Shown: in pieces, positions 24,202-29,156 of the stretch
How the letters are laid out: each line of letters begins with the position of its first letter
How positions within the stretch are numbered: position 1 is the stretch's first letter
Origin: a virus
Taxonomy: Duplodnaviria > Caudoviricetes
Direction: 5' to 3' (one strand)
Virus record (IMG/VR): IMGVR_UViG_3300042196_000161
Span: 1-32,827 of that record
DNA: 32,827 nt
Program-made: the position numbers and the translations under genes
The notes under the pieces: model-generated
Seen by the model: only the letters and a program-made list of their open reading frames with translations
What the model was told of the DNA's origin: nothing
Database searches by the model: none

Positions 24202-24338
24202 GGGCGCACCTCCGCGATTAGGGCCTCGACCCTTGGTTTTGATCCTTCGCCCGGGCATGGTCCTTCCAGCCGATTTACGACGAGCGCGCCGGTGATGAAG
24301 CCCAGAAGGAAGATGGCGAGTTGCAGCTTCCGGCTCAT
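24198..24338 (-). CDS. Small single-TM protein (46 aa)
   Basis: TGATG overlap with the terminase stop, GGAGGTG RBS, ATGA overlap downstream; MSRKLQLAIFLLGFITGALVV. Confidence 0.6.
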   Translation of the reverse strand: MSRKLQLAIFLLGFITGALVVNRLEGPCPGEGSKPRVEALIAEVRP

Positions 24339-26479
24339 CAGATCACCTCCGGCATCCAGTCCTGTTTCTCGAACGGCTGGATGATCTTGCGGATCTCCCG
24401 CGCATCGCGGGGCAGATCCTGATACTGGAACTCGGGCTCCCACTCTGCGTACTGCTTCGGTCCGGTATCCTCCTGCATCCGGCGCTGCCCGAACACCGGA
24501 ATCATCGGGCTACGGTCCAGGATATGGAGCGCGTAGAACGCCCAGCCGATCCCGAACACCCGGTCGTCGAACGCGCCCTTCTCGGCCTGGAGCTTCTGGA
24601 GCGTCCCCTGGGCCGATAGGGTTGCCAGTTCCGCGATCAGCCACGGCGAGTCGATGTCGATGAAGTAGTCCTTCACGGCCTTGATGAGCCAGTCGAGCAA
24701 TTCCGAACGGGTGTGAGCGTCCGCACTCGCCCCATAGGTGGCGATGCGGGTTACATCCTGAAGTTTCTTGTTGAGGCGAACCTGGACATGGAATCGCTGC
24801 CAGCCGAGCTTTCGCAGGGCATCCTGGCAGGCCGCGCCGTTCATATTGGTCTCGACGATGGCCTTGGGCTGCCGGAGCTGCCCGTGCTGGCTCACCGTGT
24901 ACAGCAGGCCGAGAGCATGGGCGAGGGGCGCCAGATCGGCGGCACTCACGTAGGGGCTCGCGAATTCGGCGCACTGCCTGGCGACCGTCGACATCGTGGC
25001 CTTGCGGAGCATCTCGATCGCGCTGCGCGCCTGGCCGACGCCATGGCTGGTGTCCGCGCCGAAGCCGTAGTCGCAGTCGGTCTTCGGCCACTCCCAGATG
25101 AAGAACTTCCCGTGCGGGTCGATGGCCGGGTAATCGGCGAACTTCAGCGGCACGAACTCGTAGCGGGCACCCTGGGGCGACTTGACCGGCAGCCGCGGGC
25201 GGTCGTTGTCGAAGTCGCGTTGATCGGGCTGGAGCCGTAGGGGGATCACATCCGGCTTCGCCACCAGGCCCAGGACGGCCTTGGGCTCCTCAGCCTTCTC
25301 CCGATAGGCCGCGATCAGCTCCGCGTCGAAGACGCTCGCCCCGGTCGTCTGGAAGGCCTCCAGGTCGTCCGCCGGCATCTCGCGGTAGAAGGTGTTGAGC
25401 GCCTTCTTTTCGATGTACTCCTGGCGGGTGGTCTCCCAGAACCACATCTGCTCGCGCGGCATCTCCCAGTCTGGCCCCAGTTGCTTGCGCAGCAGGTCAT
25501 TCCGCCGAACGTACGCCTTCGCGCGCTCGGCGTGGCGGTCGGTGAGTCGGGCCGGCTTCCAGTCGGGCGGAATCGGGTGGGCCCGGAGCCAGGCCGGCGT
25601 CGGGTAGATGTCCTGGCCCACGAACCAGGGCAGGAACACCGGCCGCAACCGCGAGGTCCCGAGCGGCCAGCCGGCGACCGACGACTTCCAGGTATCGTGC
25701 CACCAGTCCCCCATGAGTTTGGCCGTTCCTTCGAGGACCAGCATCATCCAGGGCGATTCGTGCATGGCGCGCAGCAGGCCGGAGTCGAGCTTCGACCGGG
25801 GGTCAGGGCAGTCGGGAACCTCCGAGATATGGGCCACCAGCGGCGTCCGGCCACGGCCGAGGTCGGTGTTCTGGTTCAGCCACTGGATCGCCACCGCCGA
25901 GTCCTGGTCGCCGAACTCGATCGACTCGCCCGAGTTGTAGGCGGTCACCCGTGGTTTGAGCCACCAGGGCATGTTGGCCCAGGCGCGCTCCATGATCTCG
26001 GCCATCTTCCCCGAGTTCTCCGGGTCCGACGACGCCACCAAGCCCTGTGTGTGCGGCCAGAAGGTCACCCGGTGGCACACGAAGCCTTCGTACTCAGTTG
26101 TCAACCCGAGCTGGCGGGCCTTCAGGGTGATCAGGGCGATGGCGATCTGCCGCCGCTCATGCTCAGCGAAGATGTCCAGGATAATGCGTTGGGCGACGTT
26201 CAGATCGAGCGGCCGTACGCTGCCGTCCCAAGAAAGGATGGAGTAATAGCGTGGGAAGAAGTACGAAACATCGTGGCGGCAGATGGTGCGCTCGTTCCGG
26301 ATCCACTCGATCTCATCCGGCCGCAGGTCCCGCACCAGCTTTTTCGAGCGGCGGTCCCACAACTTATCAAAATGCTCGATATTCGACCGGCAGTGGTCTA
26401 GCGGGTACCGCCGGGGCCTGAAGCCGAGGTGGGCGGCGGCGCGCTCGATGGCGAGGTCGGAAATTTCGCGGTCGTACAC
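24338..26479 (-). CDS. terL: Terminase large subunit
   Basis: Walker A LKARQLGLTT, Walker B VAHISE, coupling motif LEGTA, nuclease motifs FGADTSHG, VETN, FDDRV. Confidence 0.93.
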   Translation of the reverse strand: MYDREISDLAIERAAAHLGFRPRRYPLDHCRSNIEHFDKLWDRRSKKLVRDLRPDEIEWIRNERTICRHDVSYFFPRYYSILSWDGSVRPLDLNVAQRIILDIFAEHERRQIAIALITLKARQLGLTTEYEGFVCHRVTFWPHTQGLVASSDPENSGKMAEIMERAWANMPWWLKPRVTAYNSGESIEFGDQDSAVAIQWLNQNTDLGRGRTPLVAHISEVPDCPDPRSKLDSGLLRAMHESPWMMLVLEGTAKLMGDWWHDTWKSSVAGWPLGTSRLRPVFLPWFVGQDIYPTPAWLRAHPIPPDWKPARLTDRHAERAKAYVRRNDLLRKQLGPDWEMPREQMWFWETTRQEYIEKKALNTFYREMPADDLEAFQTTGASVFDAELIAAYREKAEEPKAVLGLVAKPDVIPLRLQPDQRDFDNDRPRLPVKSPQGARYEFVPLKFADYPAIDPHGKFFIWEWPKTDCDYGFGADTSHGVGQARSAIEMLRKATMSTVARQCAEFASPYVSAADLAPLAHALGLLYTVSQHGQLRQPKAIVETNMNGAACQDALRKLGWQRFHVQVRLNKKLQDVTRIATYGASADAHTRSELLDWLIKAVKDYFIDIDSPWLIAELATLSAQGTLQKLQAEKGAFDDRVFGIGWAFYALHILDRSPMIPVFGQRRMQEDTGPKQYAEWEPEFQYQDLPRDAREIRKIIQPFEKQDWMPEVI

Positions 26480-26563
26480 ACTAATTTAGTACCTTACTTC
26501 CATAGAAAAACCAAGAACTTACGGAAGCGGCTACGGAATTGATAAAGAATCCTGGCGGTTCTG

Positions 26564-27127
26564 TTAAATCTCCGCAAAATTTGCGGAAACCGTGGGGCGC
26601 TCCGCCATCATCTTGGGTAACAGAGACTGGTTGTTCTGCGCCCCACGGACTTCCTCCGCCGTGGCGGCATTCCATTGCTGCCACAACTCCTTGAGCAAGC
26701 ACTTCTCGATGTACCTCAACGCACGCCGGTGGAGGTGCATTTTCGTCAACTTCGGAGCCTTTTGCTGTTCCAGCGCTTTGCGCTCGCGGTAGAGCTCGGC
26801 GTACTGGCCATTGGCCTTGACGAGGTTATCTCCTACGACGTGCATCACGGCTCGCCTACCTGGTTGGTAGCCGAAGGCTTTGGCGAGTTCCTTGTCTGTC
26901 GTCTTACGCTGGATCTGGCCGTTGACGATCCCAAGGCCCATCCGCTTCCAGAGGCGCGTGGGGTTCCCGTACTCGGAAAGCGGCGCGCCGGCGCTGGCGA
27001 TGATCTGGGCAAGGCTCAGGATGCCGAGTCCCCGTACCGACTCAGCCCAGGCGAGCACCGAAGGCGGAATGGCCGCTTTGGCAACCTTCAACATGCGCTT
27101 CTCCCGGTCTTTCAGGGAGGCGGTCAA
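26564..27127 (-). CDS. IS110 C-terminal/Nop-domain-only protein (TasA-like, no nuclease domain)
   Basis: HhH SVRGLG..SLAQII, YGNPTRLWKRMGL, Y..LY.ERK, HLHRRALRYIEK.LL.ELW; no RuvC/DEDD domain and no catalytic SG motif; start uncertain (27127 TTG, 27094 ATG, or 27228 via frameshift). Confidence 0.75.
   Translation of the reverse strand: MTASLKDREKRMLKVAKAAIPPSVLAWAESVRGLGILSLAQIIASAGAPLSEYGNPTRLWKRMGLGIVNGQIQRKTTDKELAKAFGYQPGRRAVMHVVGDNLVKANGQYAELYRERKALEQQKAPKLTKMHLHRRALRYIEKCLLKELWQQWNAATAEEVRGAQNNQSLLPKMMAERPTVSANFAEI
26571..26587. repeat. Dispersed 17-bp palindrome copy (perfect)
   Basis: TCCGCAAAATTTGCGGA in the last codons of the TasA-like ORF. Confidence 0.95.
26590..26648 (-). ncRNA. 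Candidate single stem-loop TIGR guide unit (tigRNA-like)
   Basis: Perfect 11-bp inverted repeat CCGTGGGGCGC/GCGCCCCACGG enclosing 37 nt: agaACA-accagtctc-TGttacCCA-agatgatgg-CGga. Confidence 0.6.
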
Positions 27128-27228
27128 CGTGGCATACGCTTCGCGCTGCGCGCGATCTGAAACGCCGTCTCCCTATCGCCGTTCGTTTTCTCCAGCGACT
27201 GTATGGTTAGTTTCTTAAGTTCTTCCAT
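27124..27228 (-). CDS. 34-aa ORF, possibly the frameshifted N-terminus of the TasA-like gene
   Basis: ATG 27228 with GGAAAGG RBS; MEELKKLTIQSLEK...; stop overlaps TTG 27127. Confidence 0.45.
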   Translation of the reverse strand: MEELKKLTIQSLEKTNGDRETAFQIARSAKRMPR

Positions 27229-27242
27229 GTAACACGCCTTTC

Positions 27243-27815
27243 CTAGCCCACCTTGTAGGTCCGCAGTTCTTCCGCAAAGATCCTGGGAGAGTTCAGGACC
27301 AGCCGCATCTCCGAGTGCTGCCATCCGTTCGGCCCGATGATGATGAGGCGGTCGGGCCAGGAGTAGTCCCAGGGCGAGGGCTTGTCCTCTTGACCTTTGG
27401 CCTTCCACAGATGCCCGACGTACCGGGTGTCGAAGCAGGCGATGCTGAACTTCGCGAGGTCAAAGCCACTGGACTCCATCGCCCCGAAGACTTCCTCGAA
27501 GCCGTTCGGGTCAACCGCCATCGGCAGATAGTTGATCGTGTAGCTCCTCACGCTGCCGACCGGAAGATCCTTCTCGCGGGTCGGTTCGGACTCGATCAAC
27601 TCGGCACTCGTTCCCGAGTCGGTGGCGAGCAGCTTCCCGTGCTGCAACAGGAAGTCGCGAACCTCCGCTGCATCTTTGCAGTCGATGAAGAACTTGGGCC
27701 GCTTGCCGACCGGGCGAGCGCGCGTGAACGTGGTCGGCTGAGGCGGGTTGGAAGTGACGGGTAACGGCGCCGGACCACCGACCACCGGCCCAGTGAAAAG
27801 ATCCCAGAATCCCAT
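27243..27815 (-). CDS. Hypothetical protein (190 aa)
   Basis: AGGAG RBS; fills the gap between neighbours; no motif recognised. Confidence 0.75.
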   Translation of the reverse strand: MGFWDLFTGPVVGGPAPLPVTSNPPQPTTFTRARPVGKRPKFFIDCKDAAEVRDFLLQHGKLLATDSGTSAELIESEPTREKDLPVGSVRSYTINYLPMAVDPNGFEEVFGAMESSGFDLAKFSIACFDTRYVGHLWKAKGQEDKPSPWDYSWPDRLIIIGPNGWQHSEMRLVLNSPRIFAEELRTYKVG

Positions 27816-27827
27816 GATGGTTTTCTC

Positions 27828-28370
27828 CTATCCCCGCTGCACACGGACATCTTCCAGGTTATCGGCTTCGAGCGAAGGCAACCCTGGAGCTTCCGGCGGC
27901 GGGGTCGTGTTGATCTGTGTGTTGATTTGCTTACGGATCGCCGTAAACGAGTTCGAGGGAACCGGCAGCAGTCCCGCGTGCTTCAGGATCATCTCCCGGT
28001 CCTTAGTGCCCTTCGGGGTCAGGGCATTCTTCACCGTGGCCTGCACCACGCTCGGCAGTTGGAGCCCAAGCGCGAGGCCGGCGAAATCGACGGAGTGTCG
28101 GTGGGCGGCCCGCACCATCTCTGCCAGGAAGTCCTCGGCTGGCTGGTCGACGCTCGCCAGCACTTGGTCGAGCGGAATCGTCCGGCGTTCCTCTGCGGTG
28201 AGCCGATCCCAGACCTGGACCACCTGGCGCATCTTCGAGTCGGGCGACAGCCGGGCGAGCTCGATCAGGTTCTCTTCGCCACCCAGGGCCTGGCAGTACC
28301 GCGAGAGGCCGGCCTCGACCGGGAGCCGGATCGGCCGGATGGCGGGTCTGCGGTCAATCCTCTTCGCCAA
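27828..28370 (-). CDS. Probable terminase small subunit (180 aa)
   Basis: TTG 28370 with AAGGAAGGTG RBS; helical body, DREMILKHAGLLP, N/Q/T-rich tail; upstream of terL (function from position and shape only). Confidence 0.5.
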   Translation of the reverse strand: MAKRIDRRPAIRPIRLPVEAGLSRYCQALGGEENLIELARLSPDSKMRQVVQVWDRLTAEERRTIPLDQVLASVDQPAEDFLAEMVRAAHRHSVDFAGLALGLQLPSVVQATVKNALTPKGTKDREMILKHAGLLPVPSNSFTAIRKQINTQINTTPPPEAPGLPSLEADNLEDVRVQRG

Positions 28371-28614
28371 AGGCCACCTTCCTTGCGCGGTCGATGCTCT
28401 CCTTCGGCAGTCCCATGATCTCCCGTTGCGTGTCCCGCTGCTGCTGCTCCCAGAGGGACTCATTTGTCACTTCGATCACGTCCGACGCCTTCACTTGGCC
28501 GCGGCGGCGGATAGGAGTTGCGGGCTCCGGCGCGATCCGCTCCAGGCAGTCGGCGATCCGCTCCAGAGCCGTCGCGCAGCGGGTGAGGTCGGCAGTGATG
28601 TTGAGCAGGGTCAT
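28354..28614 (-). CDS. Hypothetical protein (86 aa)
   Basis: ATG 28614 in TGATG overlap with the HNH stop; ALERIADCLERIA helix. Confidence 0.65.
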   Translation of the reverse strand: MTLLNITADLTRCATALERIADCLERIAPEPATPIRRRGQVKASDVIEVTNESLWEQQQRDTQREIMGLPKESIDRARKVAFGEED

Positions 28615-29156
28615 CAGGCTACGTGTTTCCAACCCTTCCGCAGGCAAATCCTACTGACACAGAATTGGCTGACTCCAAAAGCGTCCGCTATTGCCTGCTC
28701 GGTCTGTCCAGCCGCCCGGAGGCGGCGAATTTCCAGTACCTGCCCTGATGTCAACTTGGAACTAGGAACGGCCTCGCCCCTCGCATAACCCTCCGGGCGT
28801 AGGCGCCGAGGATGAGCGTCTCCGCGTCGTATGCTCTCAGGATGAGTTCGACTGGAGTGGCGGCAGCCGGTTGCCAATCTCCCTTTCCTTGCCGCATCGC
28901 GGATATTGTCAGTTGTGGTTCCCAGGAACAAGTGATCCGGGCGGCAGCAGGGCGGGTTGTCGCAGTGGTGGCAGATGAAAAGGCCTTCGGGGATCGGACC
29001 ATTGGTCAGGGTCCAGGCAAGACGGTGGGTGCGCCATGCTTTTCTTGCCATCATAAAACTTCCATAGCCATTCTTTCGCCGCAATCCTGCCCAAAGCCAA
29101 CAGGCATCCGTCTTTTGGACTTTCGCCCAGAAATCCGCTGGCGTATTAATGCGCAT
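28614..29156 (-). CDS. HNH homing endonuclease with C-terminal HTH
   Basis: CWLW.G...GYG...HRLAW...GPIP...CHHCDNPPCCRPDHLFLGT..DN; SKLT..QV.EIR...IADAFGVSQ..VSRI. Confidence 0.92.
   Translation of the reverse strand: MRINTPADFWAKVQKTDACWLWAGLRRKNGYGSFMMARKAWRTHRLAWTLTNGPIPEGLFICHHCDNPPCCRPDHLFLGTTTDNIRDAARKGRLATGCRHSSRTHPESIRRGDAHPRRLRPEGYARGEAVPSSKLTSGQVLEIRRLRAAGQTEQAIADAFGVSQFCVSRICLRKGWKHVA

Follow-up and report, generated by a model that had tools for sequence, protein, structure and literature searches.

A 5′-truncated tasA gene with a worn guide hairpin in a sediment phage contig: a probable deletion remnant of a stem-loop TIGR-TasA locus

The DNA analyzed here (the window) is a whole linear viral contig of 32.8 kb from a sediment metagenome, about 51% complete. 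The stretch under study (26564-27228) lies just upstream of the gene for the terminase large subunit (24338..26479, minus strand; phrog_5989, E = 4e−14), which lies directly downstream of the tasA-derived gene described below. Beyond the terminase, P22-like portal and major head genes follow on the minus strand, as in the packaging module of a tailed phage. A 190-aa gene with no assigned function (27243..27815, minus strand) has 81% nucleotide identity to copies in 3/3 viral contigs that are otherwise unrelated. This identity ends at the gene borders, and in all three contigs the homologues are located in the tail module, with no tasA nearby. We interpret the 190-aa gene as a recently moved mobile cassette that is separate from the TIGR system. 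As a lead to relatives of the phage, it pointed to unrelated phages and gave no genome match; searches via the terminase or via TasA alone also recovered no close relatives of the phage. A second assembly (depth of about 10) is identical in sequence over 26300-27500. It comes from a run that is probably of the source sample and is not an independent sample, but it indicates that the break described below is not one assembler's error.

The initial annotation had read 26564-27228 as one gene. We found two reading frames there, both on the minus strand: a 34-codon ORF (27124..27228, ATG at 27228) and, in another frame, the last two-thirds of a tasA gene (26564..27127), which encode the end of coiled-coil helix 2, the Nop C-terminal domain, and a coding tail. 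The tail that follows the conserved ELWQQWN is long, as had been noted, but measures 34 codons and not about 36. The TasA frame is closed upstream by a TAG (27175-27173), is open from 27172, and has no stop or frameshift in what remains of it. Its first start codon, a TTG at 27127 that overlaps the TGA of the small ORF, would give a product of 187 aa, and an ATG at 27094, preceded by GGGAG 6 nt upstream, would give one of 176 aa. A programmed frameshift joining the two frames was considered and rejected, as there is no slippery heptamer. The final codons of the TasA frame contain a near-perfect palindrome (26570-26586; 8-bp arms, 1-nt center), followed by an 84-nt AT-rich gap (40% GC) before the terminase gene; the palindrome could be an operator or a late-promoter element. 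An Rfam search returned chance-level matches only.

The assignment of the protein to a TasA-like family was borne out, since the product models as a Tas Nop fold. The model has a pLDDT of 92.5 and is accounted for as a whole by the Nop region. Its best match is TaTasR (PDB 9MTY), both in sequence (phmmer, E = 2e−7) and in fold (Foldseek, E = 4e−6, TM = 0.69); TasH ranks next, and IS110 recombinases rank lower. A profile of 74 sequences of the clade matches 9MTY at E = 4e−25 and TasH at E = 4e−10. A Nop-fold RNA-binding C-terminal domain related to Tas is therefore present, its RNA-binding residues are retained, and the protein keeps 35 of the 41 clade-conserved residues (27 to 41 in other homologues). 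In line with the initial annotation, Pfam gave no match, and the protein has neither a RuvC nor an HNH nuclease domain. The 187-aa ORF also lacks any Ser-Gly dipeptide, the catalytic-loop motif of IS110 enzymes. Because a nuclease domain is absent, the protein is of TasA type. Its nearest homologue (P0002) is 61% identical, and the family comprises 1,514 representatives at E ≤ 1e−30. Homologues P0023 to P0036 (364 to 509 aa) carry long low-complexity N- and C-terminal extensions that resemble translated guide arrays.

These matches bear on the view that the gene is a decayed fragment of an IS110 transposase, next to a hairpin that is there by chance or is terminator-like. PHROG 4285 carries the label "transposase," and IS110 recombinases are among the fold matches. 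However, TasR and TasH outrank IS110, no RuvC/DEDD domain was found, and Pfam gave no transposase match. Moreover, the N-termini of relatives are disordered, short, or absent, with no RuvC among the homologue sequences inspected; guide units in relatives, identified with a relaxed profile, number 352 sense versus 7 antisense; and no terminator was called at the locus. A transposase is thus unlikely, as the initial annotation had argued, and we regard the view of IS110 debris as very improbable and already largely refuted.

One feature had been overlooked, namely, that helix 1 of the coiled coil is missing. The window protein covers only positions 160 to 325 of the 335-position clade HMM, leaving the helix-1 positions (90 to 130) uncovered, and a complete coiled-coil dimerization domain is absent. 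Helix 1 is covered in 104/104 other homologue ORFs with a closed 5′ end. Of 150 library representatives, 148 have it as well, and the two that do not are the window protein and P0059.

The hairpin reported in the coding tail is real: a perfect 11-bp stem (26590-26600/26638-26648) encloses a 37-nt loop, which parses as claimed. Read on the minus strand, the degenerate stem-loop guide (tigRNA) unit (26590..26648, within the coding tail of the tasA remnant) runs from the stem (26648-26638) through AGA, a box C of ACA (26634-26632), and spacer A (26631-26623) into the inner TG-TTAC-CCA (26622-26614), and then through spacer B (26613-26605), a box D of CG (26604-26603), and GA to the closing stem (26600-26590). 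Perfect hairpins of at least 11 bp with loops of 20 to 60 nt are rare in the 32.8 kb (3 distinct ones, including this one), and the 101-nt region around the hairpin folds at z = −3.8. With the relaxed profile, the unit is the top guide-like site of the contig on both strands (26.4 versus 18.6 for the next). Elsewhere on the contig, the first codons of an HNH gene hold a strict match to CCA-N9-TG-N9-CCA-N9-TG whose stem is weak (match at 29105-29141, minus strand; gene at 28614-29156). The clade profile gives it no rank, and it is probably a chance match.

We compared the hairpin with the units of relatives, for which we assembled 63 viral loci and the best 80 of 227 metagenome loci; removal of identical cores left 117 distinct loci. 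Seventeen genome loci, at least two of which repeat earlier ones, were added later. In the 3′ regions of homologues, where the initial annotation had expected stem covariation and a CCA-N9-TG geometry, the stems do covary, and CCA-N9-TG-N4-CCA-N9-TG units lie on the coding strand, often at the same 3′ position. In the 117-locus set, which includes the best 80 of 227, strict units, defined as CCA-N9-TG...CCA-N9-TG with an abutting stem, are confined to the coding strand. With a 4-nt inner gap, 210 distinct strict units were counted in this set, distributed over 70 loci. Of these, 82 precede the core in the stop-to-stop tasA frame, 67 are upstream and 44 downstream, 15 are contained entirely in the 3′ coding tail, and 2 span the stop. 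Motif hits selected with no demand for a stem show the same strand bias (438 distinct sense versus 17 antisense). In 81 to 94% of them, pairs 1 to 6 outside the boxes are formed, against mostly 28 to 58% when slid, and each pair occurs as five or six pair types.

In intact relatives, the order is upstream gene, guide hairpins, tasA, guide hairpins. A unit begins no more than 60 nt from the last conserved Trp in 30/111 loci, and in 18 of these it is wholly inside the ORF; guides placed in the 3′ coding tail are therefore ordinary for the clade. The description of the locus as single-guide is correct insofar as it has one unit, but it does not extend to the design of the system: among 72 relatives with enough flank, 50 carry at least two units, 6 carry one, and 16 have none detected. 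A second broken copy was seen among the relatives (L166:2890-3650), with a 5′-truncated tasA, an internal duplication, a frameshift, and two guide units downstream.

Against this background, the unit of the window is substandard. It is near the 5th percentile of strict homologue units, and it is absent from the strict scan, being recovered only by the relaxed profile, which allows offsets. Its inner loop, TTAC, is canonical (the fourth commonest in relatives, 14/210). Both outer motifs had been called deviant. This holds for box C, as ACA occurs in only 2/352 relaxed units, but CG is tolerated as the last box D (43/352 relaxed units; TG followed by CG in 31/438 motif hits). The two box-proximal pairs are both broken in the window, as in 15/439 motif hits; both are formed in 396/439. 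Under the published abutting-stem rule, in our own version of it (stem ≥5-13 bp, one edit), the unit fails with a stem length of 1 in both the ACA/9-nt and the CAA/8-nt parses. We interpret the hairpin, from its sequence, as a real guide unit that is worn and has drifted from the consensus.

The neighborhoods of related tasA genes are dominated by one family. Neighbor clustering recovered a gene of about 175 aa, located approximately 1.2 to 2.1 kb before the TasA end, which BLAST detects in 78/117 loci and an HMM in 86/117, 83 of them upstream. Where at least 2.4 kb of upstream sequence is available, it is present in 60/70 loci (these counts are for the set that includes the best 80 of 227 metagenome loci), and it also occurs in 15/17 genome loci. 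Examples are L021:2061-2582, L072:222-722, L098:1743-2288, and MW960032.1 23652-24251, with 80 more loci. Guides are often between this gene and tasA, or within either reading frame. The family has a mean identity of about 22% and an all-helical model (pLDDT 85.8), for which no Pfam, PHROG, or PDB match in sequence or fold was found (best fold Z, 4.5). Weak matches to viral models (A0A2U8UKM3, E = 0.009; Q854P2, E = 0.05) and Atlas matches to viral clusters (0.83 and 0.81) serve only as leads. Ten loci without the gene group together as a single branch (support, 94) in a quick tree: L020, L040, L041, L043, L044, L046, L048, L055, L061, and L062. At least L020, L041, L048, and L055 share a different upstream gene of 210 to 300 aa, and several of the ten have longer inner loops (7 to 13 nt) in their guide units. 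The cultured temperate Rhizobium phage RHph_X2_25 (MW960032.1 22599-25800; L150) carries both the ~175-aa gene (E = 7e−23) and a full tasA, along with six guide units, all with CG as box D and three inside tasA. Its cassette (MW960032.1 23652-25800) is transcribed divergently from a repressor gene.

The upstream gene also suggests an origin for the 34-codon ORF. Among 782 six-frame segments of the window, this ORF is the best match to the upstream-gene HMM (positions 10 to 38; the match is short, 29 residues, with a window-wide E of 0.073). Its score of 9.7 bits was reached by 0/5,000 shuffles (4,628 of them reported by HMMER) and falls among the in-sample scores of 63 true fragments, which span −0.8 to 24.8. 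We regard the ORF as a likely leftover of the 5′ end of the ~175-aa gene found ahead of tasA in relatives. On one side, the alignment to the upstream gene stops near codon 29 of the small ORF; on the other, the TasA match starts with residue 10 of the frame that is open from 27172. The putative deletion junction would thus lie in the zone 27140..27172 (minus strand), which is approximate and not placed to the base. In 64 intact loci, the equivalent points are 613 to 1,594 nt apart (median, 962); no close intact relative that shows the deletion directly was found.

We propose that the locus is most likely a dead remnant, in which a 5′-truncated, nuclease-less tasA of the stem-loop type and a degenerate guide unit were left by a deletion of about 1 kb. 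The deletion would have removed the 5′ guides together with the beginning of tasA and the greater part of the upstream gene, whose codon ~30 would have been fused, out of frame, to mid-tasA. Helix 1 of the dimerizing coiled coil would have been lost in the same event. The last guide has drifted from the consensus. Tas proteins dimerize via a coiled coil, as described by Faure et al. (PMC12045711) and in 10.64898/2026.08.11.744272. In the accounts of these two sources and of Xu et al. (10.64898/2026.09.09.750476), a TasA dimer on its coiled coil binds one hairpin guide at the CCA/UG boxes, and the two 9-nt spacers pair with opposite strands of an 18-bp site, so that transcription is repressed without cutting. 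Intact members of the clade presumably act as other TasA proteins do. The product of 176 to 187 aa, in contrast, would likely be unable to form the two-fold scaffold that holds both spacers. Because the loss of helix 1 would remove the dimer scaffold and seed contacts, the module is probably inactive. Several points weigh against a dead remnant: the clean frame with its conserved residues, usable starts, and confident model, the shortness of the upstream-gene match, the lack of a close intact relative among those found, and the incompleteness of the contig. The clean frame and starts fit a recent deletion, but a product may nevertheless be made.

The initial annotation had proposed a minimal, single-guide version of TIGR-Tas. 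In such a working module, a short TasA without helix 1 would bind its embedded, divergent guide and repress a target. This would account for the intact Nop C-terminal domain and starts, as well as for the perfect 11-bp stem and the canonical TG-TTAC-CCA loop, and a compact TasR without a coiled coil is mentioned by Xu et al. (10.64898/2026.09.09.750476). Yet helix 1 is missing in just 1 of 105 5′-closed ORFs, a remnant of the upstream gene lies at the junction, and the unit is near the 5th percentile, with the stem rule failed in both parses. The search for targets was also negative. The best match of the guide in the contig has 4 mismatches, the same as for shuffles, and the "swapped arrangement" that had been suggested as a second search is the reverse complement of the first, hence the same site. 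In viral contigs, the guide has 3 exact matches, all with a 2-nt gap and none ungapped, which we estimate to be about the chance expectation for 18 bases in 2.9 million contigs. We therefore consider a functional minimal module quite unlikely; a deletion best accounts for both the lone unit and the short protein.

Guides of relatives likewise yielded little. Against their own loci with strict units masked, 7/210 matched with at most 3 mismatches, compared with 12/1,050 shuffles, and unmasked relaxed units could explain this small excess. Against all loci, 24/210 versus 22/210 matched with at most 2 mismatches. All six guides of RHph_X2_25 are at chance level in its own genome, and two of the six guides of L157 were searched and have no host match within 2 mismatches. 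The unit of L061 at −1916 matches its own tasA at −312 (relative to the conserved Trp) with 2 mismatches; this is a single self-match among 210 and, alone, is not above chance.

A dead protein need not imply a dead guide. The hairpin might guide in trans with an intact TasA encoded by the half of the phage genome not covered or by another element, or the protein might serve as a dominant-negative sponge for foreign guides. With about half of the genome missing (the contig is ~51% complete), an intact tasA elsewhere is possible, the stem is still perfect, and the RNA-binding C-terminal residues are kept. However, the rest of the 32.8 kb contains neither another tas copy nor a strong unit, changes affect box C as well as the box-proximal pairs, and no promoter-like site was found in 26300-27900. 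We consider a role in trans or as a sponge unlikely, and we retain the deletion remnant as our preferred interpretation.

As to what the remnant derives from, we give about even chances to a two-protein subtype of stem-loop TIGR-TasA that has not been described, with the ~175-aa helical protein as a working subunit. This protein may be an adaptor, a co-repressor, or the missing factor for guide maturation or acquisition. A TIGR system, as described so far, consists essentially of a single protein and an array, and the published accounts (PMC12045711; 10.64898/2026.09.09.750476) pose as questions which factor matures stem-loop guides, how spacers are acquired, and what the natural targets are. 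A gene that travels with tasA is a candidate for these questions, and the cultured RHph_X2_25 is a ready test system. The first paper clustered neighbors at 50% identity (PMC12045711), a cutoff from which a family with ~22% identity may have escaped as too diverged. We consider the upstream gene weightier than the window copy itself, which mainly offers a caution for annotation: a deletion can create an apparent "single-guide minimal TIGR."

The closest known systems to the window locus are the stem-loop TIGR-TasA systems PlTasA (Faure et al. 2025, PMC12045711; structure in 10.64898/2026.08.11.744272), BlTasA, and MbTasA (Xu et al., 10.64898/2026.09.09.750476). The features that had seemed most striking in the initial annotation are already in print, since the text of Xu et al. 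reports that stem-loop arrays may lie within tas (at the 5′ end, at the 3′ end, or internally, and for BlTasA by RNA sequencing), lists CG among the box D motifs, and shows repression by TasA (10.64898/2026.09.09.750476). In comparison with PlTasA, BlTasA, and MbTasA, the window copy is without coiled-coil helix 1 and 5′ guides, its single unit has ACA as box C and unpaired bases between boxes and stem, and its clade has the conserved ~175-aa upstream gene, which is absent from the passages of the TIGR literature searched, where supplements may bear on it; the one partner gene that turned up there is the ParB-like one of dual-repeat loci. The C-terminal domain is matched best, in sequence and in fold, by TaTasR (PDB 9MTY) and SpTasH (PDB 9W03/9W04), but these are RuvC or HNH nucleases with dual-repeat arrays, and the locus has neither such a nuclease nor such an array. 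The TasA-tasParB operons, as outlined in PMC12045711, likewise have a conserved gene operonized with tasA, but there the partner is ParB-like and the arrays are dual-repeat, whereas the clade here has stem-loop units; eight upstream-gene proteins gave no ParB match in Pfam or PHROG, and none is listed in the fold searches. The IS110 bridge recombinases IS621 and ISCro4 have a Nop-like C-terminal fold in common with the window protein, at lower ranks; unlike them, the window protein has no RuvC/DEDD domain or Ser-Gly, and the dual-spacer hairpins are short and not a bridge RNA. Judged by these comparisons, the window locus is a member of stem-loop TIGR-TasA by descent that falls short of it in lacking a complete coiled coil and a canonical unit. 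It does not work in any new way; it is a broken member of a described family.
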